Of a stretch of DNA of 64,000 nt, positions 9,541 through 64,000 are shown piece by piece. A program made the position numbers and the translations under genes. The notes below the pieces were generated by a model. The model saw only the letters and a list, made by a program, of their open reading frames with translations. It made no database searches and was not told the DNA's origin. The DNA is taken from contig NC_089435.1 of the NCBI RefSeq assembly GCF_026210795.1, positions 2,356,001-2,420,000 on the forward strand. Direction: 5' to 3'. Position 1 is the first letter of the stretch. Each line of letters starts with the position of its first letter. The stretch comes from Rhizophagus irregularis. Its lineage: Eukaryota.

Positions 9541-11527
9541 AAAAAGAAAATGAATAATAATTTAAAGGTGTATTATTCTTTACTTTAGGCTTTTTTTTTG
9601 ACAAGTATTTTGCACGCTTTTATATCTTTTGTTGAATTTAAGTTGGTAACACAGGTCATCATTTTTGTAGATTAAGTTATGAAACAAAAATCTTTTCATT
9701 ACACAACAAAAAAAGGAAATCTTAATTTGTCAAACGATCATTGTGTAATATTTTAATATTTTTAAAAGGAAATTTGAAATTCTACGGATTTCATTCATTC
9801 ATTTTATATCGGCCGATTGGGAAAATTGGGCCTAAAAATATGATCTAGCCAATTAAAAAGCACCTCATGATAAATGACTTTCTACCCTAATTTTAATTAT
9901 ATGAGACTGCGTCTATCCTATGATCAGCCGAGTTTAAAATAAGCTTTTACGTATCACGAATAGCCAATATATAATTTAACTTTGATTTAACTTTAATCAT
10001 TAGTTTACCGGCTGCTATCTCATGACGGTCTATTTTTAAAAATGTACCCCAAATTTTTAGGGACTTCCGATATGCTCTTTATCGGGTTGGGATCAATGAT
10101 CAACAGTTACTAAATTACACAAAAAAAAATGTAAATACTGACCAATGGTATTCACATTAATTTGTTTGTTATTGGAGTAAAGATGCATCAATGAAATATG
10201 ATGATATAGATATCTAAAATTTAGTTTTACAGAATTTATATTGTTTCATCATTCAATGGTGGCGTCGCTTTATTTATCCGCGTTTACCGAAATGAAAAAC
10301 CTTTTTTTAAAGAAAGAAACTTTTTTTTTCCACAAAAAAAAAATTCTTTTTTAAAAACAAGGTAATTATTTTTGGAAGAATTCAAATCCGTGTACTCCTC
10401 TACAACTTGTTTAATCAAGTTATAGATCCTTTTCGTCCTAATTAAGGACTTCAATTATTAATATATCCTTTAGATACTACATATTTTATCGTAACTTTAT
10501 CATAATGAAACAAAAAAAAATAGTCTGAATAATGGCCGAGACTTTCATGTGTTTGTTTTTGTATTATAATACAGTAATATAAAAAAAACATTATCCTAAT
10601 CAAGCTCTTAAATGATAAACAATGATTTTTTTTAGAACATTTCATGTATATGTCATTGTATTCTTATAAATAAACAAAGAATAATGAATGAATTATTTAA
10701 GCAATCAAGTTATCTAATAATAGTAATTTTTGACTTATTAAAATATACGCTATGTATATGGGAACATATGAAAATTTTTCTAATTATCAGACTATCATGA
10801 CCAATTCTATTATAATAATAACGGAAAAACAGATCCTTTTTTGGGCATTAAGAAGCTTAAATAAAGTTGTGGCAGAGTTGTGGCTTGTATTTTATATAAT
10901 ATGCACATTTATATTACTTATTTGGGTTAAACGTATTGATGTTCTTTATTTTCAATAAAACCTTTTGAGTAATAAATTCAATGAAATTTAATTAATAATT
11001 TTTTTTCATGCGACTGCGTCTAATGAGTGTTATGAGTGTTGATTATTTTGGAAATGAATATAATGCAAATGGTAAATATTGGTAAATACTGGTAATTTGA
11101 TCATCGAATTACTACTAGGTAAACGGAACCCATTGAAGTCCATTGCTTATTATAAATACAGTAATTATATAAAAAAAAGGGAAATAAGCAGGGGTAGTTT
11201 AATTCAGAAGGGAATTATGACGTAAGTTGAAGGAAGGGAAAAGGAAAGAAAATTGCGTTGTTGATCATTTAGTACACAACAATAGAATGTCCTTTGCTAC
11301 GCTCCAATCAATAATAAAATTTGATACAACTTTCAATAGATGAAATACGTATTCCTCAGCTGTATATTTATATTTTGATTTTATGTATATATAAATATAT
11401 ATATATAGTTAAAAAAATGTTTTAGAATAAAAAAAAAATGCCAGATTCTTTTAACATAATAATATATAACACAAATAAAAATATAGCCATATCATTATTA
11501 ACAATTCCTTGCAAAGCAAAAATTTCC

Positions 11528-12033: not shown

Positions 12034-12335
12034 GGTTATAACATTGCGTCATGTGTCATATGACATGCATAACGCATGTTACAACTCGTGACGTTTGACA
12101 TAATGCTAGCCAATGCCGTAATTAATGACATTTGACGCAAAGTGTGACGTATGACGCATTGTATTTGACGTAACTTGATAATAAATTGTATCTTATCTCT
12201 ACGAAAATTTTTTAAATGCATGCTTGTGGAGTACAATGCGTTATGCTGATCCCATTTTAATAAATCATAATAAATTCGATAAACGCGAAATTTACTTCCT
12301 TCTTTTGTTTTACGTGTCACAACCTACAACTCATT

Positions 12336-14695
12336 ATGACAGAAACAGCTAGAACTGATTTACAAAAGCGCAGTAATGACACTTTATCCGAAACTCCTCT
12401 TTCACGAAAGAAAGCTAATAAAGGAGGCCCAAAATTTGATGAAGTATGGCAATATTTTACTCAAGGAGAAGAATTAAATCCAGGTCATTATAAAGCTACG
12501 TGTTATCATTGCAAAAAGGAGTGGTCAAGGGGAAGGCCAGTAGCTTTAAAAGCTCACTTGGCAAATGAATGTTTGGCATGTCCTGAAGATATTAGCAAAT
12601 ATTGGCGTGATAAACTTGCTGAAAATACGGTGAATTACACCCGAAAGATGCATTTTTCACAAGATCAAACCCAAATTCCAAAGCCTCAGTACAAACAAAC
12701 CAAAATTGTAAACCATTTTAGTTCAGATGAGCCACTTCCTCCTGAAATAAATAACCGTATTGATTGTTCTTTATTAAAGGCATGGGTGATGGCAGGGATT
12801 CCTTTTGAAGTTGTTGAGAATCCCTTTGTTTTGGATTTATTTAAAAATTTAAATCCAGCATATATCCCTCCATCTCGAACTACTTTGTCTGGTAGACTTT
12901 TAAATGAAGAAATTTCGCGTGTTAATAAAAAGGTTACATCTGAATTGGAGATAGCAGATAGTTTAACTTTAAGTAAGAAATTTTAATTTTTAAATTATGT
13001 TAATTATTAATTAGTTATTTTAATTTATTAATTCTCATCATTTATTTTATAATTAGCATTGGATGGTTGGACATCCAAACGAAATGAATCACTTTACAAT
13101 TATGTCATAACAACTTCTGATAGAAAAGAATATTTAGTTGCTTTACGCAATTATTCTATGAAATCACATAGTACAGGAGAATTTCTTGCTTCAGAAATAT
13201 CAGATATTGTAGAGAAAATCGGTTTAGACAAATTTACAGCTGTTGTCACTGACAATGCTTCCAATTCTCAAGTTGCTAGAAGAATAATAGAAGAAAAATA
13301 TGGTCATATTTGGGATATACGATGTGCAGCTCATGCTATTAACTTGATAGCAGCTGATTTAGTAAAACTTAATGATATAAAGGAATTTATCTCAAATTGT
13401 GGGATGATTACAGGGTTTTTTAATAACTCACATCAAGGTTCTGCAATTTTAGCTCAAGGTTTAAAAGATATGAAGATTAATATTGAGAGATTACAAACAT
13501 GGTGTAAGACTAGATGGGGTTCATTGTATATGACAGCAGATTCAATTTTACGTGTGCGTCCTGTTTTTGACTGGGTGAGATAATTTTTTTGATTGTTTAT
13601 TAATATTCTTTATTTTATATAATAATTCTAACAATTAAATACTATAGATTTTATTAGAACATAATGGTATTGTTACAAATTCAAACGTTTATCTCTTGAT
13701 TCAAGATGAAGAATTTTTTACAAATTGTCGTCATATTCGTTCAATTTGGGCTCCCATCAAGGAATGCATTAATATCCTTGAAGCAAAATCAGCTTCTTTA
13801 GCTGATTGTTTCGTGCAAATGATCAAATTAGCAATTGCTATATTTCGTCTCCCTTCATCAAATCCCTTTAAAGCTTCAGCAATTCAGATTTTTAATCGTC
13901 GTTATCTTGAATTTCAGCATCCTGCTTACTTATTATGTTATTTTCTTCACCCTTATTATCGAGGTATTTACTATTTTCCAGTTAATTATTAAAATCATTA
14001 TTGCTAACAATTATTTTGATTTTTTAGGTCTAGGACTTAATGATGAAGGATTTAGAAATGCAGCAATAACTGCCACAACTCTCTGGCAAAATTTAGGATA
14101 TTCTGAACAAGAATGTAGAGAACTTCTTACTCAATTCTGAAAATATGATCAAAAACTTAAACCTTATGATTTATCTTATGATAAAAATATGGATACACCC
14201 GAATTATGGTGGGGTTCTATAAGAAGTAAACCATATTATTTACGAGATTTTGCACTTCGTTTATTTGGTATTGCTGTTTCACAAGCAGGATGTGAACAAA
14301 ATTTTTCTGTACTTAAATGGATTATTGGAGATAGACGCACAAGACTTGATGTTCAAAAGCTTGAAGGTATTTCTAAAATTCGTTCTTATTACTTAGCAAG
14401 CATTAAAAATGAATTATCATATTATGGAAAGCATTTGGATGAAGCAGAATTAAGAGAAGTTGCCAATACCTCTGCAGTTGGTGAAATTATTGCTTTAGAT
14501 GATAATGATAATGATACTAATTATCTGCTATTAGAGGAAGATCAGGAAAGAGAAGGTACACAAGAACGTACTACTTTAATATTGGAGGACATTATTGATC
14601 TTACACAACCAATCTTTGAAAATGCAGAAAATGTGGATAATAATACTAATGAAGAAATCAATATAGATAGAAATATGGATTTTAGTCCTTATTGA
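12336..14695 (+). pseudogene. BED zinc-finger hAT transposase, 4 exons, internal stop
   Basis: Exons 12336-12972, 13057-13574, 13648-13963, 14028-14695 with GT-AG introns. Motifs: BED finger (VWQYF..CYHC..LKAHLANEC), LDGWT, VTDNAS, RCAAH, TRWGS, WW, CEQNFS. In-frame TGA at 14138-14140. Confidence 0.9.
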
Positions 14696-17506: not shown

Positions 17507-18793
17507 TTAATAAGAAGATTTCTTGTCATCTTTTTTGTTTTTCTTGTAGTAATCATCTTTTTTGTGGTAATCGTCTTTGTGATCATCTTTCTCGTAGTAG
17601 TACTCATTTTTGTAATCATCATCCTTGTAATAATCGTCATTGTAGGTATCATCTGGTGAAGCTAAGGCATTACGTCTGTAGTATTTCTTGTCCTTATCTT
17701 CGTAGTCATCTTTCTTGTGGTAATCGTCTTTGTGATCATCTTTCTCATAGTAGTACTCATTCTTGTGGTCATCTTCCTTATAATAATCGTCATTGTATGT
17801 ATCATCTGGTGAAGCTAAGGCATCACGTCTGTAGTATTTCTTGTCCTTATCTTCGTAGTCATCTTTCTTGTGGTAATCGTCTTTGTGGTCATCTTTCTCG
17901 TAGTAGTACTCATTCTTGTAGTCATCTTCCTTGTAATAATCGTCATTGTATGTATCATCTGGTGAAGCTAAGGCATCACGTCTGTAGTATTTCTTGTCCT
18001 TATCTTCGTAGTCATCTTTCTTGTGGTAATCGTCTTTGTGATCATCTTTCTCGTAGTAGTACTCATTCTTGTAGTCATCTTCCTTGTAATAATCGTCATT
18101 GTATGTATCATCTAATGAAGCTAAGGCATCACGTCTGTAGTATTTCTTGTCCTTATCTTCGTAGTCATCTTTCTTGTGGTAATCGTCTTTGTGATCATCT
18201 TTCTCGTAGTAGTACTCATTCTTGTAGTCATCTTCCTTATAGTAATCGTCATTGTATGTATCATCTGGTGAAGCTAAGGCATCACGTCTGTAGTATTTCT
18301 TGTCCTTATCTTCGTAGTCATCTTTCTTGTGGTAATCGTCTTTGTGGTCATCTTTCTCGTAGTAGTACTCATTCTTGTAGTCATCTTCCTTGTAATAATC
18401 GTCATTATGTGTATCACCTGGTGAAGCTAAGGCATTACGTCTGTAATACTTCTTGTCCTTGTCTTTGTGATCATCTTTCTTGTAGTAGTCGTCTTTATCA
18501 TTTTTGTAGGAATGTTCTTTTTTCCCTTTTTTATAATCGTAGTAGTAGTAATAATAATCATCTTTGTCTTCCTTCTTCTTATCATCATAATAATATGAAG
18601 AAGGTGACTCGTCACGTTTATCATTCAATTCAATCCCGGTATTAGGAGTAGGAGCAGCAGTAACTACATATATATAAAATGAATTAGAAAAAAACATTTT
18701 ACTTTGTATTCTTTACAGTCAAGTTTTATACTCACCTTCATTAAGGGTTGAAACTCCCAAAATTGCCAAACAAATAGCTATTGTTAACTTCAT
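17507..18793 (-). CDS. Secreted Asp/Tyr/Lys-rich tandem-repeat protein with Kex2 sites, SP7-like effector family (about 404 aa)
   Basis: Exon 1 18793-18736, GT-AG intron 18735-18664, exon 2 18663-17507. Signal-peptide-like start MKLTIAICLAILGVSTLNEVTAAP, then KR, then six 51-aa (153-bp) repeats beginning RR-[D/N]ALAS[P/L]. Confidence 0.85.
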
Positions 18794-34830: not shown

Positions 34831-35034
34831 GCCGATCAATAATTTACCCCTCGTTTCGAAATATTCACCTTAATATATAAACAAACCGCAAAAATATCCG
34901 CTATTTTTTAAATAGAAGTCTATAAAAAATATAAAAACCTTCCATTTTGATTAAAGAATAAAAATTAATTTGCTTTTTTAAATTTAAATTTCCTAATTAT
35001 ATTAATTACTTATTATCATCTGGATTTGAACAAC

Positions 35035-35607
35035 ATGAATTCAAATAACCAAAATACACAAGATTATTATAATTTACAAACGGATCAAACTGAAAATAGC
35101 CCTTCTCCTCAACAAATTTCTAATAATAATAATAATAATGAAAACATCCAACATACTTTAATTAACAATGTTGGAGTATCTAATACGAATTTAAACACCT
35201 TGCACATTAATACTATTAATTCTACGACTCTTGCGCCTAATAATACTACATTTGAGTTTTATTTTTATTTACCAAACGATACTCGTATCTATCGTGTTAC
35301 TTATTCTGAATTAAATCCATCAGAAAATGTTCAAATTTTGAATAATAGGATTAATCTATCTCATGTCCCTGATTACCAGTTGCCGTACCATTATAATGTA
35401 CAATCCCTAATTCGGCAACAGATTCAGCAACAAGTCCAACATCCTATTGTTTATCAACAAGATAACATTCAACAACAATACTTCGATACTACTCAACCAA
35501 CTTCCCAAGTATACTCAAATAATGACACCTATAATACAACTTCAATTTCAGTAGACGGAACTGTTTCTTATGATATGGGAAATATGGGATTCCAGAATTC
35601 TCCCTAA
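35035..35607 (+). CDS. Asn/Gln-rich hypothetical protein, paralog 2
   Basis: First ATG at 35035; intact ORF with the family motifs. Confidence 0.8.
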   Translation: MNSNNQNTQDYYNLQTDQTENSPSPQQISNNNNNNENIQHTLINNVGVSNTNLNTLHINTINSTTLAPNNTTFEFYFYLPNDTRIYRVTYSELNPSENVQILNNRINLSHVPDYQLPYHYNVQSLIRQQIQQQVQHPIVYQQDNIQQQYFDTTQPTSQVYSNNDTYNTTSISVDGTVSYDMGNMGFQNSP

Positions 35608-40231: not shown

Positions 40232-42740
40232 TTTTTATTTTTATTTTTAAAACCACGTGAACAAGATTACAGAAAGATAGACAAGAACAAAAGATAAAAC
40301 AAAAGTCGAACGCTATCTAATACTAAGCTATAATCAAACCGCCCGAGGACAGCACCACTCTGGTACTTTCAACGAACTTGGAGGAGTCCCTAACACGACA
40401 TCACATCCTAATAAACCAAAGTAAAGGCAATCTAAACATAGACCCGTATTTTTCTTTCGGTCGAAAAGACCGCCACCTGTTAATACTGTAAGAGGTGGAA
40501 TGGTTCACACTATTCTTATTGTTGTACGTTGTTAAAAAGGTGTACGTGGGGGTTACCCAAAAAAAAAAAGATGTAATAAAATACTAGTCAAAAAAAGTAA
40601 AAAAAAAGTGGCTAGGTATAACGTAAACTATGACTATCAGCGTGCCACTAAAAATAAAAGATAAGCTGATAGGTGATCTAAAAATTGTTAAAGTGAGGCG
40701 GAGACTTTAAAGTCTGCTGAAGAGAGAATATCTAGTCTCAATTTCTTGATGTGGGTGGTGTGCCTGTCTGCATTTATAGTCAAGACAGGAGGACATTTAT
40801 GTGGTCTGATTTCAAGTTGTTTTGCATCATCGGATGTGTGTCCTTTATAACGATAATGGGAGTCATCAATGTTCATGACTGAGAAATAGTCGATATTAAA
40901 ACGACCAAGCTCCTGTTCTAACTGGAGTAATTGTTTGTTAGTTTTGAAAATGTTTTTTCCCTGTTTAAGCCTGTTCTCTAGAGCAGCACGACGCTCAATC
41001 AGAGGCGAGATTTTCTTGTGATAATGATCCTGGAAATTGGTGAGGTCTTTCGTCATATCTTCACGATATTCTATACGGTTGATAGAGGTACCCCAGAGTT
41101 GAGCTCTGGCATAAAGTTCTTTTTCAAGAGTGAGGCGAGCATTATCATATGCTTCATGATCTTTTTGTTGACGTAAAGCTAATTCATGAGCTTCTTTACG
41201 TTTTTTAATACCATCTAACCAATACGCACAGCCTGGCGTAAAATGTTGACCTTTGAGTTTGGCCTGTCTTTTAGAAATATAAACAGGTTCGTCGGTTACG
41301 TAAGGAAGGAGACTGTTAGGAATCCAAATACCCAGCTTGTCGTGCCAAATGTTCTCATCTTCGACGGGAACGGGTTGTGAATTGGTGGCAGGCGAGCTAG
41401 TACTTGTCGTACTAATTGAATCGTCCCTTGGATAACGTGGAGCGGGTCGGCGGAACGGGTTATGGTAATTCACATGTTGTATAGGTCTGTTAATATGCTG
41501 TGAAGGTAAAAATAGAAAACGGTGTTGTCTAGCACGCTGAAGTTTTTCTTCAAGACTATCCACACGTCTCTGTGACTTTTTGTTATTACCACGATTGTAG
41601 AAAACCGATCTACATGCCCGCTGAAAGCGGGATTTTTGTTTGTTACTCCTTTTACTATTGTCGGAATGGTGTGAACGGAAATTATCTAACCGTTTACGGT
41701 ACATAAGGTGTTTCTTCTGCGTGTTGAAATGTTTATATTCGTTCGCTAAGTACGAGACATCGTACGAAATGCCTAAGCGATTTGAGTAAACGTGTTTTTT
41801 CGTGCCATGTTTCCAGTTGAAATAAGTGCGCAATGCGTGAGCTTCTTTGTGGTTAATAGTGTCATTATGGGTCAATAACGGGGTGTGTTTCTTGACATTA
41901 TGAAAAATGTCTAAATTTTTATGATGAGAAATGCAGGCTCGTCTATTATGAAACATAATGAAGGGAGAGGGGACACTACACAACTGTGTGTGTTCACTTC
42001 CAAAATTGTGAGTAATGGAGAAGTTACATGGTGTGAAAATACCAAAGTAAAAACGATAACGTTTATAAGAAAAATTAAAGAAAGTTTTTGTGCGGGAATT
42101 TCTTTGTGTGACTGTGTCAGCACGTGATTTGATAAGAAAATATCTATCAAGTAATTTGGAACGAATAAGATTAAAATATTTCTTTTGAATAGATCGGGGG
42201 ATGACTTTTTGATGGGAAAAAAAATGTTGTAACATCTTACTAATCTGGTATTTCAGATTAGGAAAGCTACAGGTGGAAGAGTAGCTAATAGGGGTCGATT
42301 TCATGTGATAATCATTTGTGTGTATTTTAAGATGAATATCATTGGTGTTTGTTGAGGGATCGACTAGCTCAAAAAAGAAACTTTTTGATCTCCTGATTTC
42401 ATAAATCTTGTTACATCCAGCCCGTTTGGGTCTAGTCACGTGAAATTTGTGGAATGAGACATCGAAAGAAAATTTTCCCAAGGAAATATGTTTAGGAAAA
42501 AAAGAAGCCATATTTTTCAATATGTTGTATGGGTGTGAGATAAAAAAATATTTTATTATAAAAACTTCTTTCAGAGGTCGGGTAATAAGGAGAAGAACCT
42601 TTCCATAAGAGGCCACCCAGTGGTCCTCTTTCTTCTCGAGCGTTAACAAACGTAAAAAAGGGTAAGTAAAAAAAACAGTATTTAACTGCGGATTTCTATG
42701 TGAAAAAATGGAAAGGGGAAAAAGTTTTTTTTGCCGGGTC
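40232..42740 (-). mobile_element. TSD-flanked, A-tailed retro-insertion with one ORF and no recognisable RT
   Basis: Exact 16-bp direct repeat GAATTTATAACTTATT at 40216-40231 and 42741-42756; A-rich tail AAAAATAAAAATAAAAAA at the minus-strand 3' end; higher GC than flanks. Confidence 0.85.
40688..42511 (-). CDS. Basic hypothetical protein (607 aa) carried by the retro-insertion
   Basis: First ATG at 42511; intact and intronless; K/R/H-rich; Cys/His cluster PC..LC..RRACISH; SNRLGISY; C-terminal coiled-coil-like region. Confidence 0.8.
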   Translation of the reverse strand: MASFFPKHISLGKFSFDVSFHKFHVTRPKRAGCNKIYEIRRSKSFFFELVDPSTNTNDIHLKIHTNDYHMKSTPISYSSTCSFPNLKYQISKMLQHFFSHQKVIPRSIQKKYFNLIRSKLLDRYFLIKSRADTVTQRNSRTKTFFNFSYKRYRFYFGIFTPCNFSITHNFGSEHTQLCSVPSPFIMFHNRRACISHHKNLDIFHNVKKHTPLLTHNDTINHKEAHALRTYFNWKHGTKKHVYSNRLGISYDVSYLANEYKHFNTQKKHLMYRKRLDNFRSHHSDNSKRSNKQKSRFQRACRSVFYNRGNNKKSQRRVDSLEEKLQRARQHRFLFLPSQHINRPIQHVNYHNPFRRPAPRYPRDDSISTTSTSSPATNSQPVPVEDENIWHDKLGIWIPNSLLPYVTDEPVYISKRQAKLKGQHFTPGCAYWLDGIKKRKEAHELALRQQKDHEAYDNARLTLEKELYARAQLWGTSINRIEYREDMTKDLTNFQDHYHKKISPLIERRAALENRLKQGKNIFKTNKQLLQLEQELGRFNIDYFSVMNIDDSHYRYKGHTSDDAKQLEIRPHKCPPVLTINADRHTTHIKKLRLDILSSADFKVSASL

Positions 42741-43071
42741 GAATTTATAACTTATTAAAATCACGAAAATTATAATTGTTAGACACGTGTGAGATCATGT
42801 GATTTTTATATCAACTATGTATGTGTGACAAATAGGATTTCACACCTCAAAAAAGGGCCCTCGAAAAATTCAAGTGACGCATGTGACAAAACAGTTACGT
42901 GATTGATTCGTGAACATTTTTATAGGGTACGCTGGGTAAAATATTGAACCCTTAAGTAATTTCTTTTTAAAAAAATGATGGACCAAATAAATGCAAACTT
43001 TGTATTACTTTTCAAGGATAATTTTCTGGACTTTGTATTCACTGGTTCGTATAAAAAAAAAAATTTGAAAA

Positions 43072-43775: not shown

Positions 43776-43988
43776 TTATTTCATTCACCTCATAATAACG
43801 TACTCGCAATCATTTATTTATTATGCTAATATCGTTACACCTGATGCATAATCTTAGTAAAATATTTATATAAACACCGCGCAATTCTTCTAAAAAAATT
43901 TAAAGACCTTCTATCTAGATTAAAGAGTACAAAAATCTTAAATTTCCTAATCATACTTATTATAATTTGTCTTTTGATATTGAACAAC

Positions 43989-44525
43989 ATGAATTCAAAT
44001 AACCAAAATACACAAGATTATTATAATTTATCAATGGATCAAACTGGAAATAGCTCCGCTCCTCAAAATAATAATGAAAATAATCAGCATACTTTAATTA
44101 ACAATGTTGGTGTATCTGATACGAATTTAAACACCTTGCACATTAATAGTATTAATCCTACAATTCTTGTGCCTCATAATACTACTTTTGAATTTTACTT
44201 TCCCTCACCAAACGATGCACGTATCTATCACGTTACTTATCAGTATACCGAATTACACCCATTAGAAAATGCGAGACTCCTGAATGATAGAATTAATCTA
44301 TCTCACATTCCTGATTATCAGTTGCCGCATAATTATAATTTACAATCTCTAATTCAACAACAGATTCAACAACAAGTCCATCATCCTATTGTTTATCAAC
44401 AAAACAACACTCAACAACAACCTTTCGACACTACTCAACCTATTTCCCAAGTATACTCAAATAATGACACCTACAATGCAGCAACGCAAGATATGGGAGA
44501 TACGGGATTCCAGAATTCTCCTTAA
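43989..44525 (+). CDS. Asn/Gln-rich hypothetical protein, paralog 3
   Basis: First ATG at 43989; intact ORF with the family motifs. Confidence 0.8.
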   Translation: MNSNNQNTQDYYNLSMDQTGNSSAPQNNNENNQHTLINNVGVSDTNLNTLHINSINPTILVPHNTTFEFYFPSPNDARIYHVTYQYTELHPLENARLLNDRINLSHIPDYQLPHNYNLQSLIQQQIQQQVHHPIVYQQNNTQQQPFDTTQPISQVYSNNDTYNAATQDMGDTGFQNSP

Positions 44526-48420: not shown

Positions 48421-49894
48421 AGTAATATGACTCAAAGTTTTAAATAAAAAATATTTGTAACTTTTTATTGAAACCTCAAAAAGAAAAAGTAAATCTAACA
48501 TCCTACTGGCAAATAACAAGAACGTAAAACTTAAAAGGAATTCATCTTTTTTCACCGACATAAAATTGATCGTGAAAATTTGCTTTAATTATTAATAACT
48601 GAACCTGCTTATTTTTCATTTAATTTATTTTTTCTGCTATATATAACAAAAAATATTGTTTATATAAAGTAAATAATAAAATGTTTGCATAATTTTTTCT
48701 TCCTATAATTATATGTATTCCACTGATGATGTCATCCTTCAATATATATTATTTTATGTTATTTTATGTTCTGGATAATCAAGTTCAATAAGTTCATGCA
48801 CAGACCAGAATTCTGGCGGGTGGATGATATAATGATTGATAATGAAGATTTTTCGTTTTTTTTTTAAAAAAAAAAGGGATTTATTTGGAAAAATTTCAAA
48901 AATCTTTAATATGACGTATGATTTTCTAAGTTGAGTAATTTTTATATCGATAAATTGCGATTTAGCGAAATAAAGTCATGCAGATTTTCATTGAAACTGC
49001 CTAACCAAAAATAAATTATTTGTTGTTAATAAAGTAAAACGTGAAATGTCTGTCGGTAATAAAACGGTAAAACGTATCATTAACTGTAACTAATAATCTA
49101 ATTTAAATAAATGAATAAACAAATTTTAAGTCGTATAACAATAGTCTCATCATAGACATCACTATAACTCATTTTAGTAAATAATAAACTAAAAAAATGA
49201 GAGTGATACGGAAAGTTATGTTGTTGTTTGACAGTTTACTCAAACACGACGGGCCAAACACGTGATTCAGAGTGGGCCGAGATACTATTCATCACCTGAG
49301 TACGTTTCACATCCCTTATGTTACACGCCGCCAAATGTCACTCTAAACTATTCGTCTCACCGAAAAAATGAATGCTAGTTGCGGATCTTTGTCGTACAAA
49401 CATAATCAAATGATCTTTTTCTCTGTCGAAGAAATTTTAGATCAAAATAATTTGAAACTCATTAGGAGGTCTTCTTTTGGATTTTCCTTTATTTCTTAAA
49501 ATATCAATTTGTTACAAACATTAAATTATCTCTTATTTGGATTTGGATTTACGTCATTCCGATATGTCATGTGATAGCGTCTTTAACATCCGAAAATCAT
49601 TGACTAATTTAGGAAGTTATAAAATGCTGTCAGCTGTAAATAGAATATGTGTGAAGTTATATAGTAACTATGTAAGTAACTATATAAAAGACATATATAT
49701 AATATATAGTTACAAAAAAATTGTATATAAACAAATAACTATTCTTTCTTTTCGATAGAAAAAAAGTCTAAAAAAAATTTATAAACATTCCATCCAGATT
49801 AAAGAGTAAAAAATTTATTCGCTTCTAATTTTAAATTTCCCAATTATATTTAATTATTCATTGTCTACTTAATATTATTGTTTTTTGAAAAAAC

Positions 49895-50437
49895 ATGAAT
49901 TCAAATAACCAAAATATACAAGATTATTGTGATTTATCAATGGATCAAACTGGAAATAGCTCCGCTTCTCAACAAATTTTTAATAATAAAAATGAAAATA
50001 TTCAACATACTTTAATTAATAATGTTGGAATTTCTGATTTAAATACCTTGCATATTAATTCTACAACTCCTGCGCCTTATAACACTACATTTGAGTTTTA
50101 TTTCCATTTACCAAATGATACTCGTATCTATCGTGTTACTTATTCTGAATTAAATCTATCAGAAAATGTTCAACTCTTGAATAATGGAATCAATCATATC
50201 CCTGGTTATCTTTTGCCGCATCATTATAATGTACAATCTTTAATTCAACAACAGATTCAACAACAAGTCCAACATCCTATTTATCAACAAAATGATATTC
50301 AACAACAATCCTTCGATACTACTCAATCTACTTCTCAAGTGTATTCAAATAATGACACCTACAATACAGCTTCAATTTCAGTAAATGGAACAGTTTCTTA
50401 CGATATGCAAGATACAAGATTCCAGGATTCTTCCTAG
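49895..50437 (+). CDS. Asn/Gln-rich hypothetical protein, paralog 4
   Basis: Intact 180-aa ORF with the family motifs. Confidence 0.8.
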   Translation: MNSNNQNIQDYCDLSMDQTGNSSASQQIFNNKNENIQHTLINNVGISDLNTLHINSTTPAPYNTTFEFYFHLPNDTRIYRVTYSELNLSENVQLLNNGINHIPGYLLPHHYNVQSLIQQQIQQQVQHPIYQQNDIQQQSFDTTQSTSQVYSNNDTYNTASISVNGTVSYDMQDTRFQDSS

Positions 50438-55723: not shown

Positions 55724-55920
55724 AATTCTGTGTGAACTCAATTGAGGTTTTCTGTGTGATCAATTGAGAATAATTCTGTGTGAACTCAATTGAGGTTTTC
55801 TGTGTGATCAATTGAGAATAGTTCTGTGTGAGCTTTTTCTGTGTGAACTCAATTGAGGTATTCTGTGTGATCAATTGAGAATAGTTCTGTGTGAACTTCC
55901 AAAAACAATTCTGTGTGAGG
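55724..55920. repeat. Tandem repeats in the Gypsy leader
   Basis: Eight TTCTGTGTGA motifs interleaved with (C)TCAATTGAG palindromes; main period about 48 bp. Confidence 0.85.
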
Positions 55921-56444
55921 GTACCCAAGAAAAATCATGATTAACGTTAACAAAAATTAAAATAATATTTGCTGGACAAATATATAAAAGTTAAGGATGA
56001 ATTAAAAATAATAAAAATAGGAAGATTGACAAAAATCACATGACCAAGGAAAAATATAAATATAGGAGGGAGATTTGGATCTCCCACTTATTATTTCAAA
56101 ATATAACAAAATAACGATAATAATAAAATAATAATAATTATAACAAGAAATTAAAATGATTGTACATAAAATCAATTTAACTGAAGAAGAATTGGGAAAA
56201 TATGTGTATAAAAGGAGTTAAATTAAAGATACATAATGAAATTAATGAAATCAAATATGGAATCACATTCCAACTTTAGGTTGGGAATTTCAAGGAAAAT
56301 GTAAATTTATTTGTACAAACCTGTAAACTACCATACTCAGTAATGAACAAGTGAGGTAAAGGCAAGCCCAGTATAGGTCAAATAAAATATAAAAGAAGGA
56401 TAAAAAGTAAAAGACGTGAAAATTTTTAGAGAATTTTATTAAAA

Positions 56445-59400
56445 ATGGAATGGTACCATGTTTGGAACGCTGAATATATAAACCATAAACAAGAACATGA
56501 CCTAGGAGTGATAGAACCAGAGGAATGTTTAGCATGTGAAATATGTAACCCAATAGAAAGAGAAGTATCAGCGGCATTCAAGAAATTTTGGGATGCTTTG
56601 TTTAAATTCGAGGATACAATACTAATGTACAATAATGTAACACATAAAGAATTATTGAATTTATTAAGTATGGACAATAGAGAAAGGGAGGATACAATAC
56701 ATAAGGGAAAATGTAGGAATATAGTAGATAGAATAATTGAATCAATAAGGTACAGACAACAACCAAAAATGAAGGAAAAAGGATTGAGAATAATAATTGT
56801 AGTAATTGTAAGGGATTGTATTGAAGGAAACTTGGAAAATGAAATATTTGATCGATTAATAGGATGCCCAGAAATAATGAAACATGGATACATTTTAGAA
56901 GATTGGGATGTTGAAAATAGGTTTCAAAAATTTTGGGATTGGTATAACACGATATTGGAAAATGAAATGAAAGCAATACATGTTAAGAAGTTAGCAATGA
57001 AGTTATTCAGGGATCTATTATATGAAGAAACAGAAGATCTGTTGAGGAAAGAAGAGGTAATTGAATTATTACTCCAGATAGAATATCAAAATAGATGTGA
57101 GGTAGACACGCAAGAAGGAGGTGATGCATGGGTAAGATATGTATCAAAAGTAAGACAAAGATTTATTGATACCAAACAATTTACAAGGGAACCTGAGGAC
57201 CCAGAAAGTGCTAGTCCTGAAAGTTATGAATTAGAGGACAGTGATGGTAGTATACATTATGAAATAAAAATAGAGGATGATGTCGAATGGACAGTAGAAT
57301 CATTAAAAAGAAAAATTGAAGAAATGGGTGGAAGGTTCACCGACAAAGATATACAAAGGATGTGGGACCTAAGGATAAGGATAGAATTGATATTAACAGA
57401 GGACTTTTTAGGTACATTTTTCGAATTAATGAGACTAAGTGATGAAAAATTAAAAGATGAAATAAATGAATGGTTAACAAAAGAAACATTAATATGTGGA
57501 AATTGTAGGAATAGAAAGTTACCTGATATGATAGCAGACATTGGACAATGTAAAAATTGTGAACAAAAAGAATTATTAGAATTAAAGGATGACTTAGAAA
57601 AACTAGGATACGAATTAAATGTGTCAGAAATAGAGAGAATAAGAAAATTCAGGATAAGCAATAGTATAATATTAACAACGGAATTTATGGAAAAATATTT
57701 TCAGGAAATTGATACGAATGACAAAGAATTAAGGACAAAATTATATGAATGGATAAATGAAAATACCACATTTTGTGATGAATGTGGAATAAGATGGATG
57801 AACAATAAATTTGACGAAGGAAAAACCAAGTGTAGGGATTGTGAGAATGACGAAAATGAAATTGATATCAGGGTCAAAAGATTAAAACAAATATGTGATG
57901 ATAATAAAATAGAAATAACTGATGGAGAGTTATTAAGGTTAATCAGTATGGGATATACTGATGGAGAAATATTGGATCAAGAATTTATTGAAATATTCCA
58001 AGGAAATAAAAATGATTTGGAGAAAAATTTAAGGCGGATATTAGATAAATTTCTAAAACAGCAAGCTGGAATTGGGGATAGTGAAAGCAGTGGAAATGAA
58101 TCTGATAACGAAAAATCTGATGGATCTGAAAAAGAATCAGATGGATCTGAAAAAAATAGAGAAATTTTAAATCCAAATGATACCGATAGCAATGAAAATT
58201 TTGAAGAACCTTATGAAGAAAACATTATAAATAGACCCGGTTTTGACTCAAGTGAAAGTTCAGAATCAAATTCTGAGGATAAAAGTGAAATATCTGATTA
58301 TAATATAGAAAATTTATTTGAAACACCTTTAACACCACCGATACCACCAATCCCACCAATAGTACCAATAATTATGGGAGCAACAAGAGCTGAAGTAAGG
58401 GAAGATGTTAGAGCGGCTTTACTAGCAACAACAGGACATGATATAGGAGGTAATTGGGCTGGATTAATCGCAGCCAACCCATTAGCAAATGCAATTGAGG
58501 ATGCAGGAAACGCAGCTGGAGGAATAATTAGTTTGCCACACTTTTATGGAAAAGAAGAAGAAGATGTTAATGATTGGGTAAGACAATTTGAAACAGCATT
58601 CACTGCCATAGGAAAAGCAGCAGGAGTAAATGGAGCTAGACAAGCAGCAATGGCAGCTACCTGTTTGAAAGGTGCAGCAGCACAATGGTATAATGAAAAG
58701 AAGGAAGCAAATAATGGACATTTAGTAAATTGGGCAGACAATGATGATGATAATGATTTGAAACATAGAGTTAAACAAAGATTTACCAGAGAGGATGTTA
58801 GAAAAAGGAAAATGTTAGAATTAAGGAAAATAACACAAGGAGTAAATGAAAATGTTGAGGCATATACGATAAGGTTTAGACAAATATTAAGGATAGCTAC
58901 CAGAGGCCATGCATTAGATGATGAATTACAAGTGGATAATTATATCGAAGGATTAACACCAACATTGGGATATCAAGTCAGAAGACAAAACCCAGCAAAT
59001 CTAAATGATGCGGTGAATACAGCAAGAAGAGAGGAGGAAGCTACTAATGAATTAATAAGAAAGACACGTGGTATATCAGTTAGTACCCAAAGAAAAGGAA
59101 TCGATATACAAGATGACAAGCCAAAGAATATATTTGAAAAACCATTGGAGAAAAATTATGAGGATGACCTTGCCGACATGTTTAAAAAATTAGAGGTAAA
59201 ACTAGTAAATCAACTTGGAGGGCAAAAGAGACCACCAAACAATAACAATAGACAAGGACCACCACCTCGAGCATGTTATAATTGTAAACAACCAGGACAT
59301 TATGCAAATGAATGTAGGGTAAATAATGGTCAAAGAAACTATGGAAGACCAAATAATCAAAATTATAATAGAAGATCAAATAACTATAATGGAAGACCAA

Positions 59401-60032
59401 ATAACTATAACAGACCACCAAACCACCAAAACAATAATCGAGGATTCAATGTAGTGGAATATGATAATTATAATGATCAATATGACCAATATGATTATGA
59501 TAGTCAGGATTATCAGGATAATTATGATCAAGGATATAGTTATGACGACCCGTATTATCAAGATAATGATGTAACATTTAACCATGTTGATCAAGACTTT
59601 TATATTGGTGAAAGACAAACGAGAAGTAACATAAAAAATAGGTCAAGTAATCGAGATATAGATATGGAAATTGACCAAGAACAAGCACGAAGAAGGAATA
59701 ATAAATATGCAAGCCAAGAGGAAAGGGCAGCAGCATTACCAAAAAGAGGATTCACTGATGAAAGTCTGAGGAAAGCACAAGAAGCAAGGAGAAATAATAA
59801 TACATGTGGAAATTGTGGACAAAGAGGTCACTATGCAAAACAATGTAAAAATGAACGTGTTGAAGGTATCCATAGGACAAGCGCATTTCAGAGGAACACA
59901 CCAGAATATAACGTATTAGAGGATATGAAAAATACCAGAGCAAATGCAACCTTTTCACAAATTATAAACATAAGTCCAGAGCAAAGAAAAATATATCATG
60001 AAGGAATGAGAAGGTATCCACAAACAGATTGA
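56445..60032 (+). CDS. gag: Gag polyprotein with long N-terminal extension (1195 aa)
   Basis: Capsid-like region (FYGKEEEDVNDWVRQFE, LKGAAAQWY, ITQGVNENVEAYTIRF); two CCHC knuckles CYNCKQPGHYANEC and CGNCGQRGHYAKQC. Confidence 0.9.
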   Translation: MEWYHVWNAEYINHKQEHDLGVIEPEECLACEICNPIEREVSAAFKKFWDALFKFEDTILMYNNVTHKELLNLLSMDNREREDTIHKGKCRNIVDRIIESIRYRQQPKMKEKGLRIIIVVIVRDCIEGNLENEIFDRLIGCPEIMKHGYILEDWDVENRFQKFWDWYNTILENEMKAIHVKKLAMKLFRDLLYEETEDLLRKEEVIELLLQIEYQNRCEVDTQEGGDAWVRYVSKVRQRFIDTKQFTREPEDPESASPESYELEDSDGSIHYEIKIEDDVEWTVESLKRKIEEMGGRFTDKDIQRMWDLRIRIELILTEDFLGTFFELMRLSDEKLKDEINEWLTKETLICGNCRNRKLPDMIADIGQCKNCEQKELLELKDDLEKLGYELNVSEIERIRKFRISNSIILTTEFMEKYFQEIDTNDKELRTKLYEWINENTTFCDECGIRWMNNKFDEGKTKCRDCENDENEIDIRVKRLKQICDDNKIEITDGELLRLISMGYTDGEILDQEFIEIFQGNKNDLEKNLRRILDKFLKQQAGIGDSESSGNESDNEKSDGSEKESDGSEKNREILNPNDTDSNENFEEPYEENIINRPGFDSSESSESNSEDKSEISDYNIENLFETPLTPPIPPIPPIVPIIMGATRAEVREDVRAALLATTGHDIGGNWAGLIAANPLANAIEDAGNAAGGIISLPHFYGKEEEDVNDWVRQFETAFTAIGKAAGVNGARQAAMAATCLKGAAAQWYNEKKEANNGHLVNWADNDDDNDLKHRVKQRFTREDVRKRKMLELRKITQGVNENVEAYTIRFRQILRIATRGHALDDELQVDNYIEGLTPTLGYQVRRQNPANLNDAVNTARREEEATNELIRKTRGISVSTQRKGIDIQDDKPKNIFEKPLEKNYEDDLADMFKKLEVKLVNQLGGQKRPPNNNNRQGPPPRACYNCKQPGHYANECRVNNGQRNYGRPNNQNYNRRSNNYNGRPNNYNRPPNHQNNNRGFNVVEYDNYNDQYDQYDYDSQDYQDNYDQGYSYDDPYYQDNDVTFNHVDQDFYIGERQTRSNIKNRSSNRDIDMEIDQEQARRRNNKYASQEERAAALPKRGFTDESLRKAQEARRNNNTCGNCGQRGHYAKQCKNERVEGIHRTSAFQRNTPEYNVLEDMKNTRANATFSQIINISPEQRKIYHEGMRRYPQTD

Positions 60033-60572
60033 CTACAAGAATCAATGAACAACATTGAAGCAGAACACTTAACTGCATTAAGGGGTAAATTAATAATAAA
60101 CCAAGAATTAAAGGACGTAATGTTTGATACAGGAGCAGCAGTAAGTGTAATAACTAGTCAGATAATGGATGAAATGGACCTAAAAATTGAGGAACCAAGT
60201 ACAGTAAGATGTGTGATGATAAATGAGGATAAATTAGCATCTAGGGGTACCACGACAATATACATACAATTTGGGGATAAGGAGATACCCATTAAGGTTG
60301 AAGTAATTGATTCAGGAAAAAACGAAATTGTGTTAGGAAATGGAGTATTAGATATGTTTAAGGCGAATATAGATTACACGGATAAAACAATAATAATTAG
60401 AATGAATGATGAAACTATGGATATACCAGTGAAATACACACAAAGGACCATTAAAGGGTTTGAAGAAACATTTGATGAAGAGGAAATATTAGAAGAATTA
60501 TACCAGGATGAATTGTATAACATATATGAAGATGACCATGAAGGTCAGGAAGATGAAAATTTTAAAGTATAA
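60033..60572 (+). CDS. Aspartic protease, in frame with gag after a single TGA
   Basis: MFDTGAAVSVI catalytic motif and IVLGN; first ATG at 60045. Confidence 0.88.
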   Translation, partial: LQESMNNIEAEHLTALRGKLIINQELKDVMFDTGAAVSVITSQIMDEMDLKIEEPSTVRCVMINEDKLASRGTTTIYIQFGDKEIPIKVEVIDSGKNEIVLGNGVLDMFKANIDYTDKTIIIRMNDETMDIPVKYTQRTIKGFEETFDEEEILEELYQDELYNIYEDDHEGQEDENFKV

Positions 60573-62047
60573 GTCTTGGTCAGAATGATACTGAAGAGAC
60601 GATAAAGAAGCACAAAAGTGACCATGAAAAATTTACTGAAAAATTTAAAGTAGGGGACATAACCAATGAACAAAAAGGTAAATTAAAGGTATTAGTAGAA
60701 AAATATAAGGATATATTTGAGTATGATGGTGAAAAATATAATAGGACAAACCTAGTAAAACATGAAATCAGATTAAAAGGGGGTACTGAACCAATAGCCC
60801 AAAAGAGGTACAAAGAAAATGATGAAAAAGGTAAATTCATCAGAAAAGAGGTTGACGAGATGTTAAAATTGGGAAAAATTAGAGAATCCAGAAGTCCATG
60901 GTCTTCACCAGTGACTTTAGCAGGAAAAAAGTCTGGAAATTATAGGTTTTGCATCGACTATAGAAAATTAAATAAAGTTACAATAACAGATGCATATCCA
61001 TTACCAAGGATTGATGAACAATTAGAAAGGATAAGTTCAGGAAGATGGTTTACTAGTCTAGATTTAGCATCAGGGTTTAATCAGATAGAAATGGCTGAGG
61101 AAGATATTGAGAAAACAGCATTTATATGCTCAGCAGGATTATATGAATATAATGTCATGCCATTTGGGTTAACAAATGCGCCTGCAAGTTTTCAAAGGTT
61201 AATGGATAAAGTATTAAAGGAGTACCTAAATGAATTTGTGATAGTATACATTGATGATATAATGATATATTCGGAAAATTTTGAAGACCACCTAAAACAC
61301 ATAAAGTTAGTGTTAGAAAAATTAAAGGAAGCCAGTTTAATACTAAAGTTAAAGAAATGTATATTTGGAAAAACAGAAATAGAATTTTTAGGACATGTAG
61401 TTGGTAAAAATGGATTAAAACCAAGTCCAGGAAAGGTTGAAAAGATACAAAAATTAACAGCACCTATAAATATAAAAGGTGTAAGGTCAATATTGGGGTT
61501 ATGTACGTATTATAGAAAATTTATTAAAGATTTTTCAAAAATAGTAAAACCAATAACATCTTTATTGAGAAAAGATGAAAAGTTTGAATGGGGCATCAAA
61601 CAACATGAAGCATTAGAAATATTAAAAAGGAAATTAACCGAAGAACCGGTGTTAAGACAACCAGATTGGTTAAGGAAATTTATATTAATTACAGATGCTT
61701 CAGGAATAGGATTAGGGGCAGTGTTAGCTCAAAAAGATGATAAAGGTCAAGAATACGTAATAGAATATGCCAGTAAAAGTTTAAACAGGACAGAACAAAG
61801 ATGGCCAATAACCGAACAAGAATGTTATGCAATTGTATGGGGAATACAACATTTCCATAAATACTTGATCAATAGAAAATTTGAGGTAGTAACAGACCAT
61901 GCAGCTTTAAAGGGATTAATGACTGCAAAAGTACCAAAAGGAAAGAGATCAAGATGGGTCATGGAATTGGAACAGTATGATTTTGAAATAACCCATAGAC
62001 CAGGAAAAGAAAATAAAAACGCAGATGCCTTATCAAGAATAATATAA
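60566..62047 (+). CDS. pol: Reverse transcriptase - RNase H
   Basis: Frame open from 60566; SPWSSP, RFCIDYRKLN, LDLASGF, MPFGLTNAP, YIDD, TDAS, TDH, NADALSR; stop right after RNase H. Confidence 0.95.
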   Translation, partial: SISLGQNDTEETIKKHKSDHEKFTEKFKVGDITNEQKGKLKVLVEKYKDIFEYDGEKYNRTNLVKHEIRLKGGTEPIAQKRYKENDEKGKFIRKEVDEMLKLGKIRESRSPWSSPVTLAGKKSGNYRFCIDYRKLNKVTITDAYPLPRIDEQLERISSGRWFTSLDLASGFNQIEMAEEDIEKTAFICSAGLYEYNVMPFGLTNAPASFQRLMDKVLKEYLNEFVIVYIDDIMIYSENFEDHLKHIKLVLEKLKEASLILKLKKCIFGKTEIEFLGHVVGKNGLKPSPGKVEKIQKLTAPINIKGVRSILGLCTYYRKFIKDFSKIVKPITSLLRKDEKFEWGIKQHEALEILKRKLTEEPVLRQPDWLRKFILITDASGIGLGAVLAQKDDKGQEYVIEYASKSLNRTEQRWPITEQECYAIVWGIQHFHKYLINRKFEVVTDHAALKGLMTAKVPKGKRSRWVMELEQYDFEITHRPGKENKNADALSRII

Positions 62048-62083
62048 ATAGATGGGTAAAAGAGTTACTTTTCAAAAATAAAA

Positions 62084-62323
62084 ATGGAACAAGTGGTAAG
62101 AAATACAAATCATAAAATAAAGGATATAATCGAAAATTTAGAAGGTATAACAAAGGAATTAAACAGGATAAATTATAACTATAAATTCAAAGCCAAAAAT
62201 TTTGAAGATAGTGAAGAAAGACCATTAATATTGGAAACTCAAGGGGAAATATTACAAATAGAGGTGATATTAAGTAAAGTAAACAAGCTAAAATTATCAG
62301 AATTATGTAAAAATGGGACCTAA
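62084..62323 (+). CDS. Small helical/coiled-coil-like ORF (79 aa) inside the retrotransposon
   Basis: AAAAATGG start context; same A-rich codon style as gag and pol; overlaps the next ORF by 11 nt. Confidence 0.5.
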   Translation: MEQVVRNTNHKIKDIIENLEGITKELNRINYNYKFKAKNFEDSEERPLILETQGEILQIEVILSKVNKLKLSELCKNGT

Positions 62324-64000
62324 AATAATAATCATATGTGGAGTTGATGGTACTGGAAAAACATTCATTGTAAATAAACTTATAAAAGAATTTGAAAAAG
62401 TAGGACAAAGTGTGAGGTTTAACACCTTTAAAAGGAAAAGAGAGGACAATGATAAGTATAAATTACCAAAGAAAGGTATAGAATGGGAATTCAGGAAGGA
62501 AGTTGTTGAACAAATCAACAGGAGAATGGAAGAACATGATAATGAGGATTGGTTAATATTAGATAAAAGTCCCTATAGTGAGTACTTTTATCAACAAACA
62601 CCATCATTCGACAGAGGATACATAACAAGATATGAGAACCACCTATTAGAAAAGGAAGTATTTAGGAACAAAAGGATAATTGATGAATCAATAGTGATAT
62701 TTTTAGAAAATGAAAAATGTTGGGAAAATTACAAAGGTAGAGAATATTCGAAAAAGGATCAAGGACATAAAACATCATATCCATTATTAGATGAAGAAAG
62801 ATATATGGAGATGGTGAAATCATTTAAAGAATGTCAAGATATTTACAAAGGAGAAAAATATGCTAATATTAAAATATCAAATAATGACACAGATTGGGAA
62901 AGAGTATATAATAAAATAATAGAATTAGATGGAGATAAACCACCAATAGAGGTTAAAAATGTTGAGATTAAGGATAACATCAGGGTAACTGATGGTAAAA
63001 AGCATATTGAGAAAAATGGTAAAAACATCAGAATAATAGAAGATTTTGAAAAGATGGGAGCACTATATTTAGCTCACAGTCATGAATTATCGGCACATAT
63101 GGGAATCAAAAGTACTTATGATAATTTAAAAGATAAATATTATTGGGAAAATATGCTGAATGACGTTGAAAGATATGTAAGGACATGTGATGAATGTCAA
63201 AGAAGAGGAAAACCACAAGGGAAAAATGAATTACACCCAATTAAAGTAGTAGAACCATGGTATCAAATCGGGATTGACTTTGTTGGACCATTGAACACAA
63301 CAACAAATGGTAATAAATACATCATAGTTGCAATGGATTATTTTACAAAATGGCCAGAAGCCAAAGCAGTAAAAGAAGCAACTGCCAAAGAAGTATCAAA
63401 ATTTATTTATGAAGACATCATTTGTAGACATGGATGTCCAATGAAAATATTGAGTGATAGAGGAAGTCATTTCAATAATGAAATGATTAAGGAATTAATG
63501 GAAAAATTTAAAATTAAATGGAATTTTTCTACAAGTTATCATCCAGAGACAAACGGACTTGTTGAAAGATTCAACCGAACATTAGGTCAAGCATTAGCAA
63601 AATTATCAACCAAAGATGATTGGGATCAAAGGATAGCACCCATATTATTTGCTTACCGAAATAAAAAGCATAGTTCAACGAGAATTCGACCATTTTATTT
63701 AACATACGGAAGAAATGTACGGACAATAATGGATGAAAATATCAAAGAAATTAACCTAAACGATAGAATAGTTGGATTATTAGAAGAACTACCAAAAATC
63801 CGACATGAAGCCAAAGAACAAATACTGAAATCTCAAACAAAACAAAAAGAGTATCATGACAGAAAAATAAGCAAAGAACACACCTTTGGAATTGGAGATA
63901 AAATACTACTCTATGATAAAGCCAAAGCACAACAACTATCGGGAAAATTAGAATCAAAATGGTTGGGACCATTTTACATTCATGAAATACTACCGAATGG
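62313..64000 (+). CDS. Thymidylate-kinase-like P-loop domain fused to integrase (partial, at least 562 aa)
   Basis: Manual translation is open to the window end: MGPKIIIICGVDGTGKT, LILDKSPYS, IVIFL, then HSHELSAHMG..CDEC, GIDFVGP, MDYFTKW, SDRG, NGLVERFN, KWLGPF. Confidence 0.88.
   Translation, partial: MGPKIIIICGVDGTGKTFIVNKLIKEFEKVGQSVRFNTFKRKREDNDKYKLPKKGIEWEFRKEVVEQINRRMEEHDNEDWLILDKSPYSEYFYQQTPSFDRGYITRYENHLLEKEVFRNKRIIDESIVIFLENEKCWENYKGREYSKKDQGHKTSYPLLDEERYMEMVKSFKECQDIYKGEKYANIKISNNDTDWERVYNKIIELDGDKPPIEVKNVEIKDNIRVTDGKKHIEKNGKNIRIIEDFEKMGALYLAHSHELSAHMGIKSTYDNLKDKYYWENMLNDVERYVRTCDECQRRGKPQGKNELHPIKVVEPWYQIGIDFVGPLNTTTNGNKYIIVAMDYFTKWPEAKAVKEATAKEVSKFIYEDIICRHGCPMKILSDRGSHFNNEMIKELMEKFKIKWNFSTSYHPETNGLVERFNRTLGQALAKLSTKDDWDQRIAPILFAYRNKKHSSTRIRPFYLTYGRNVRTIMDENIKEINLNDRIVGLLEELPKIRHEAKEQILKSQTKQKEYHDRKISKEHTFGIGDKILLYDKAKAQQLSGKLESKWLGPFYIHEILPN

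Follow-up and report, generated by a model that had tools for sequence, protein, structure and literature searches.

Among enzymes of nucleotide metabolism, dUTPase is the only one that we found described in the pol region of retroelements. In non-primate lentiviruses it lies between RNase H and integrase, as the earlier note on this DNA correctly stated when it proposed the analogy used here, and it is reported to be required in non-dividing cells (PMC4531489, available text). Fungal Gypsy elements with a captured dUTPase at varying positions are described in the available part of PMC2864245. A separate literature concerns stop-start junctions, by which the fungal virus CHV1 and the SART1 retrotransposon achieve termination-reinitiation (PMC2699510, text in part). 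No retroelement with a nucleotide kinase appeared in the full-text literature as far as its text was available, in line with the earlier note; GyDB, Repbase and most subscription journals lay outside this scope. The available main texts of PMC11075540, PMC8647823, PMC13465315, PMC3248453, PMC5408684, PMC6431247, PMC10799480, PMC6416283 and PMC12440569, supplements and repeat libraries being outside the scope, mention no such kinase. Several relatives of the protein discussed below carry the automatic JGI label "thymidylate kinase", so the domain has been annotated and yet seems undescribed. Gypsy elements have recently expanded in Rhizophagus irregularis, a major plant symbiont, according to the available text of PMC8647823. 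Here we report a kinase of a Gypsy lineage from this fungus that is real, under selection and apparently undescribed.

The window, meaning the whole stretch of 64,000 nucleotides analysed here, ends inside a Ty3/Gypsy element whose last reading frame joins a predicted nucleotide kinase to an integrase. The frame is open on the forward strand from ATG 62313 to the window end (62313–63998, 562 aa, no stop), just as first described, and the motifs named at that time are in place: IIIICGVDGTGKT at aa 5–17, LILDKSPYS at aa 81–89 and IVIFL at aa 127–131. Profile and structure-model comparisons assign aa 1–206 (62313–62930) to a nucleotide kinase domain with a predicted fold of the thymidylate kinase (TMPK) or deoxynucleoside kinase (dNK) type. 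It contains a P-loop GVDGTGKT (62340–62363), visible in translation and alignment, a conserved basic loop N37-T-F-K-R-K-R-x-D45 following strand 2 in the alignment (62421–62447), and DKSPYSEYFYQ (62562–62594), which alignment and profile comparison place at the site of the TMPK DR motif with Arg changed to Lys. A short in-frame linker follows (62931–62960), where locus comparison shows a stop and a new ATG in relatives, and then the integrase (62961–64000), which runs past the window end.

The HHCC-DDE-GPF integrase said to follow directly has its motifs intact in the same frame, its C-terminal end being lost at the window edge. Profile search locates Integrase_H2C2 at aa 251–299 (E 1.5e-17) and rve at aa 318–411 (E 8.3e-11). 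Residues H255, C292/C295, D322, D382 and E418 were all found, giving a D-D(35)-E triad; H262, the second His, and the GPF at aa 552 were read off the translation (HHCC at 63075–63197, D at 63276, D at 63456, E at 63564, GPF at 63966). Integrase copies elsewhere finish at 593 aa, i.e., 31 residues past the window end, and a tail of this length leaves no room for a chromodomain. Contigs of two other runs, X1 (60899–63354) and X16 (60959–63354), cover the RNase H stop, a 79-aa ORF and the kinase–integrase junction with 17 substitutions and zero gaps relative to the window; since they bridge this whole interval, an assembly error was rejected as the source of the fusion.

The kinase–integrase ORF is not joined to the reverse transcriptase (RT)–RNase H, which stops at 62045–62047; ORFs of 9 and 79 aa lie in between. 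The element as a whole shows the Ty3/Gypsy (Metaviridae) domain order Gag, protease, RT, RNase H, integrase, all on the forward strand. It begins with tandem repeats (55726–55922; a 62-nt family in 4 copies) presumed to represent the 5′ LTR or leader, the 3′ LTR being beyond the window. The gag gene (56448–60032) encodes 1194 aa with an N-terminal extension of ~640 aa, a capsid domain and two CCHC knuckles. The extension (56448–58370) contains five CxxC pairs and clearly matches no Pfam family; proteins P0060 and P0062 and the metagenomic locus L011 begin in a related way. A short motif upstream of gag, TGCTGGACA, is common to the window (55969–55978) and L011 (5933–5942) and possibly corresponds to the end of the LTR or to the primer site.

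The gag stop (60030–60036) stands in a UGA-CUA-C context with the protease in frame, and L011 (372–378) has a UGA followed by CUAC, again with the protease in frame. We take this context to be a readthrough signal, and programmed readthrough into the protease is likely. The aspartic protease (60033–60572, FDTGA at 60123) is followed by a junction (60556–60580) where RT lies in the −1 frame with a 7-nt overlap and both frames are stopped. Similar junctions in L011 (880–900) and L020 (55–75) share a conserved AAGTCTTGG and stops in both frames, and no standard slippery site into the RT frame was found in any of the three. Because the junction is stopped in both frames and there is no early Met, RT would require splicing or an unusual frameshift. 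The RT-RNase H itself (60566–62047, YIDD at 61247, ending in TAA) matches the RVT_1 and RT_RNaseH profiles, and the best of its 12 PDB matches is the Ty3 RT (E 1.3e-97). Third-position GC is alike in kinase (0.23), RT (0.22) and integrase (0.21). RNA-seq cover is near nil, with 25, 41, 24 and 7 reads per ~11 million records in four runs, both strands counted.

Elsewhere, the window holds a fragmented DNA transposase (12264–14695), presumably hAT-like from its zinc finger and dimerisation-like end. A 401-aa ORF on the reverse strand (17507–18712) has Tyr/Asp/Lys-rich tandem repeats behind a hydrophobic start. There are four paralogous Asn/Gln-rich orphan ORFs (9019–9561 on the reverse strand, 34969–35607, 43845–44525 and 49889–50437), and a basic, intron-free ORF of 687 aa on the reverse strand (40688–42751) that possibly comes from another mobile element.

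Dozens of relatives at 45–69% identity are located between RNase H and integrase. A metagenome scan reduced 155 pattern matches to 23 loci, and 21 of these also show RT-RNase H or integrase (the short L002 and L005 reveal neither). The kinase adopts three layouts in the lineage. Five loci (L003, L004, L009, L011 and L013) have it in one frame with RNase H, eight (L001, L010, L012, L014, L018, L020, L022 and L023) have it as an ORF of its own, and the window has it fused to integrase; the remaining 10 of the 23 loci are cut or ambiguous in this respect. In all 14 metagenomic loci showing both genes, the kinase is closed by a stop and the integrase has its own Met. The kinase–integrase fusion described in the earlier note is therefore no defining trait of the lineage and is a feature of one clade only. 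That confinement also weakens the suggestion that the kinase regulates integrase, at least as a general role.

In a 60-sequence tree, three integrase-fused rows form one clade (100/99) with their sister P0034, whose frame continues into the beginning of the integrase, while the nearest relatives of this clade, P0004 and P0035, stop after the kinase. Rooting with five outgroup proteins failed owing to long branches; the direction of change rests on parsimony, by which the fusion is derived, since outside relatives are also without an integrase fusion. The fusion of the window subfamily would have arisen by loss of a stop-start junction. In L008 and L021, kinase and integrase share a frame and are a single stop apart, so a fusion of this kind can arise easily. 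Six Rhizophagus gene models (P0011, P0023, P0031, P0066, P0081 and P0085) also join kinase to integrase; they lack the last helix of the kinase and the first helix of the integrase, and we treat them as probable predicted introns across the stop and leave them out of the fusion count.

The gene following the kinase tends to start at its stop codon. In 16 of the 21 loci with a visible stop, the next ORF of at least 25 aa begins −8 to +6 nt from it, often at ATGA or TAATG, whereas the background is 1203 of 3337 stop triplets. The resulting p is 2e-4, rising to 9e-4 when three near-copies are collapsed into one; both values are generous because the loci are related. In the window the chain runs from the RNase H stop through the 9-codon mini ORF (62052–62081) to the 79-aa accessory ORF (62084–62323), probably helical, whose stop overlaps the kinase ATG lying 8 nt before it. 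We propose that the downstream ORFs would be translated by termination-reinitiation at these overlapping stop and start codons.

The content of the cassette varies. A homologue of the 79-aa ORF sits downstream of the kinase in L013 (blastp E 2.8e-9) and matches another one in L005 (blastp E 1e-15). A conserved ORF of ~50 aa lies just after the kinase, stop-start linked, in L002, L003, L006, L009 and L019; its L006 copy gave no Pfam match. An F-box ORF is placed between kinase and integrase in L015 (670–1086, E 2e-5), an ORF of L018 (945–1128) begins similarly, and it is possible that this accessory gene hijacks host ubiquitin.

An NMP-kinase fold, as claimed for the N-terminal part, is consistently predicted by an AlphaFold2 model, chain comparison and Foldseek. 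The model, built on a 23-sequence alignment (A1), has a pLDDT of 89.9 and a five-strand NMP-kinase layout. The top of 48,161 chains compared was the S. aureus TMPK 4dwj_A (Z 16.2, rmsd 3.0, 180 aligned), tied with a human dGK (Z 16.1, rmsd 3.1, 193 aligned) and a Giardia dAK (Z 15.7, rmsd 3.2, 192 aligned), the top matches having ~13% identity. Foldseek searches of PDB and viral models returned the same two families, TMPK and dNK. Since these folds tie and identity to solved kinases is only 8–20%, the comparison leaves the substrate unfixed.

Sequence profiles place the domain near the same enzymes. The phage family phrog_761 ("thymidylate kinase") matches all 23 members of A1, and the window protein at aa 3–195 (E 3.2e-12). 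Residues 1–205 give weak Pfam matches to AAA_28 (E 4.6e-6) and to Thymidylate_kin (E 2.4e-4), and they miss the family cut-offs of PF02223 (21.3 vs 27 bits) and TIGR00041 (21.5 vs 83.25 bits). Against eight TMPK-like proteins, the lineage profile scores E 3e-17 and puts DKSPYSEYFYQ on the DRY...YQ helix. No dUTPase family occurs among the profile matches of the kinase frame, whose fold is of the P-loop type. A language-model search returned phage, archaeal and bacterial clusters, several labelled TMPK or AAA_28, and serves as a lead only. Kinship with FtsY, raised by a PDB sequence search, was dropped, the matches being limited to the P-loop region. One dNK gave a full-length profile match (E 1e-8). 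Deoxynucleoside kinases use a glutamate after strand 2 as catalytic base and carry an ERS motif. In this low-identity alignment the glutamate of the dNK EP motif falls on Asn37 (Asn in 59 of 60 sequences) and ERS on DKS, so that neither has its counterpart. Judged from sequence and model, the protein thus probably resembles TMPK/dNK superfamily enzymes in its mode of action, yet it belongs to neither family.

Conservation was counted over 60 aligned sequences (59 for some columns). In the P-loop, G10 and D12 are kept in 54 each, G15 in 59, K16 in 57 and T/S17 in 59; among other catalytic-looking columns, D84 and K85 are kept in 59 each and R143 in all 60. Basic residues are near-invariant at K40, R41, R42, R43, R61, K62, R71, R101, K120, R143 and K147. 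At two positions the window subfamily departs from most relatives, with Cys9 in place of Asp/Glu and Phe18 in place of Thr/Ser. The lysine that had been pointed out in this copy in place of the DRxxxS arginine turns out to be invariant (59 of 59 aligned sequences), which sets the kinase outside the canonical TMPK family; the DK motif sets off a new branch within the TMPK superfamily. PMC12995831 (text in part) calls the DR arginine essential to TMPKs and reports its replacement in the inactive rPPK3, and the importance of this arginine is also stated in the available part of bioRxiv 10.1101/466938.

Among 1.84 billion representatives, 81 proteins matched the profile at E ≤0.001, 45 at ≤1e-10 and 27 at ≤1e-30. 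Beyond the lineage lies a second tier sharing the DK motif (28–39% identity to the window kinase), the closest being P0077, P0078 and P0151 (31–39%, E ~1e-29), and canonical TMPKs and dNKs surface only at E 1e-5 or weaker. An N-terminal NUDIX domain is detected by Pfam in P0077 (E 3e-9), P0078 (E 4e-11) and P0103, and by alignment in cluster mates. Proteins combining NUDIX with a DK-type kinase comprise the P0077/P0140/P0142 cluster (71 members), P0078, P0151 and P0103, all metagenomic records. A bacterial, endosymbiont or viral donor of the kinase is possible. Pattern scans insensitive to distant relatives returned none from IMG/VR (A1, P0077 and P0078 patterns) or from GTDB genomes (A1 and P0078 patterns), and among annotated phages gave no matches or chance-level ones. 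A looser P-loop scan yielded 37 viral loci with weak matches, of which 17 were translated, and the 16 usable ones are ordinary phage kinases. One of these, on a 176-kb viral contig (L028, 4662–5906), is a NUDIX–thymidylate kinase fusion with a canonical DRY, a likeness of layout only.

We hypothesize that the protein is a dNMP kinase supporting reverse transcription, by analogy with the retroelement dUTPases, and give this reading a probability of roughly 0.5. It would use ATP to convert a dTMP-like dNMP to the dNDP, a host NDP kinase would complete the dNTP, and the supply for reverse transcription would be eased when the host pool is low. The job would be independent of the partner, because RNase H-fused, free and integrase-fused forms keep the pocket unchanged; a fusion would couple the amounts of kinase and integrase, though the kinase's job would not need it. 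The reading is favoured by the predicted fold and the profile matches, the kept catalytic-looking positions, the purifying selection, a divergence no faster than that of RNase H, third-position GC equal to that of RT and integrase, the dUTPase precedent, and distant relatives whose kinase has a NUDIX hydrolase as partner, which likewise serves the nucleotide pool. Against it stand the loss of the DR arginine, the missed family cut-offs, the low identity and tied folds, the Cys9 and Phe18 of this subfamily, the rows on which the kinase and RNase H trees differ and the near-nil RNA-seq cover. In addition, a host assumed to have an essential TMPK of its own may need no second one.

The same NUDIX relatives could be read differently, with the kinase acting on damaged or modified nucleotides, in pool cleaning or anti-defence, as one half of an ancestral NUDIX–kinase pair. 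P0077, P0078 and P0151, the closest relatives from outside the lineage, have the NUDIX domain N-terminally and share DK, and an invariant DK suggests an unusual substrate. However, the retrotransposon kinase is without a NUDIX domain, and its N-terminal extension aligns with NUDIX C-termini no better than shuffled sequences do, P0090 excepted. We consider this explanation unlikely, although it is the best placed of the alternatives to dNMP kinase activity. The ~50-aa extension of most lineage kinases accordingly finds no support as a NUDIX remnant; the exception, P0090, is itself NUDIX-less.

Loss of the DR arginine, which goes with inactivity in rPPK3 (PMC12995831, text in part), would also suit a module that binds nucleotides but catalyses slowly or not at all, and whose part is to regulate, localise or tether RT or integrase, perhaps as a sensor or by nuclear import through the KRRR loop. 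Such a role is in keeping with the fusions of the domain, which involve RT-RNase H in several clades and integrase in a single clade. Nevertheless, the kinase is a free ORF in eight loci, partner swaps leave the conserved pocket unchanged, and the P-loop Lys and Thr and the LID Arg are kept. We rate a module of this type as improbable, second among the alternatives.

A third alternative starts from the many near-invariant basic residues and assumes a polyphosphate-dependent nucleotide kinase, with fungal polyphosphate recharging (d)NTPs, that arose within the TMPK superfamily like PPK3 and PPK2. Polyphosphate is abundant in these fungi. Chains of S. tokodaii ST1543 (Z 13.9, rmsd 3.8, 190 aligned) and of a PPK2 (Z 12.0, rmsd 4.2, 184 aligned) resemble the model, but TMPK and dNK chains outscore both, and the PPK2 profile matches only 2 of the 23 members, both weakly. 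A basic cleft is reported for PPK3 enzymes, which had carried a TMPK annotation (PMC12995831, available text). We regard this option as quite improbable, behind the two preceding ones.

The persistence of the kinase can be followed among copies. A domain search found kinase relatives in 32 of 828 candidates of 309–984 aa, 29 of 205 of 114–364 aa and 1 of 391 longer ones; the organism names given are R. irregularis or R. clarus only, the remainder being metagenomic. The selection analysis covers the window kinase and 17 loci, the other 6 of the 23 being broken or short. In it, dN/dS lies at 0.056–0.214 in 29 of the 30 closest pairs of 153 (one is saturated), with a median of 0.23 over 115 unsaturated pairs. 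These values, obtained by one of the checks named in the earlier note, are far below 1 and mean purifying selection. With dozens of sister elements holding the gene at the RNase H/integrase position under such selection, the kinase is not a one-off capture. In 23 elements the kinase and RNase H have the same mean p-distance (0.28 each) and correlated distances (Mantel r 0.70, a value reached by none of 999 permutations). Some rows (P0014/P0022 and L011) are placed differently in the two trees, which indicates that modules were swapped; we infer one old kinase capture with later module swapping.

The integrase-fused subfamily has expanded recently. P0003 (98% identical) belongs to a cluster of 47 members, the named ones from R. 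irregularis, and among the 15 listed, nine are 593-aa kinase–integrase proteins, 96.5–99.2% identical among themselves and encoded on contigs of nine different lengths; some of them may be one locus in different assemblies. That the kinase is a passenger, a captured gene useless to the element, is largely refuted and barely credible, because dN/dS is far below 1: four loci are broken (L016, L018, L021 and L022) and the P-loop is damaged in one of nine full-length copies (P0168), but broken copies are normal for transposons, conservation equals that of RNase H, and the gene is kept across clades 45–69% identical.

The feature to be noted is a lineage-wide kinase in a modular stop-start cassette, of which the integrase fusion is one recent arrangement. 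A conserved kinase would be a second means, beside dUTPase, for reverse-transcribing elements to manage their nucleotides. The natural series of layouts, from RNase H fusion through free ORF to integrase fusion, permits a direct test of the importance of fusion. How an integrase that begins at its own ATG is packaged becomes a question, and the DK-motif kinase is small and easy to assay. We also speculate, tentatively and as a doubtful possibility, on a broader picture that combines two propositions: a polycistronic, virus-like Gypsy lineage that would express integrase and swappable accessories (kinase, small helical ORFs, F-box) by stop-start reinitiation and without a Gag-Pol polyprotein, and a DK kinase that would be a new family derived from a NUDIX–kinase module, with a non-canonical donor or substrate (polyphosphate, modified nucleotides).

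Among known systems, the closest are the dUTPase-bearing retroelements, i.e., non-primate lentiviruses, Gypsy elements of Postia, Phanerochaete and Tuber, and bdelloid LTR elements, which likewise hold a captured nucleotide-metabolism enzyme in pol (PMC4531489, PMC2864245, PMC5408684, all in available text). The lentiviral dUTPase has the same RNase H/integrase position as the kinase, and shifts of position between families are as in PosPlaTy3. In contrast to the dUTPase elements, the enzyme here is a P-loop kinase, mostly in a separate ORF or fused to RNase H with the integrase in an ORF of its own. Ty3 shares the Gag-PR-RT-RH-IN order, supplies the closest solved RT-RH and has a GPF integrase; the present lineage differs by its long Gag extension, a pol split into several ORFs and an accessory cassette before integrase.

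Thymidylate kinases (PF02223, TIGR00041, phrog_761) share the fold, the GxDGxGK[ST] P-loop with its acidic residue and the YQ ending the DR helix. Unlike them, the lineage has DK in all members and 13–19% identity to solved structures, and the acidic residue just before the P-loop motif is Cys in the window protein. Deoxynucleoside kinases (dCK/dGK/dAK, PF01712) tie with TMPK in fold, and the lineage departs from them by Asn37 in place of the EP glutamate and DKS in place of ERS. Finally, the UAAUG, AUGA and near-overlap junctions are the same as those of CHV1, Hv190SV, caliciviruses and the non-LTR element SART1 (PMC2699510, available text), whereas here they occur in an LTR element, are chained over several ORFs and would supply the integrase.
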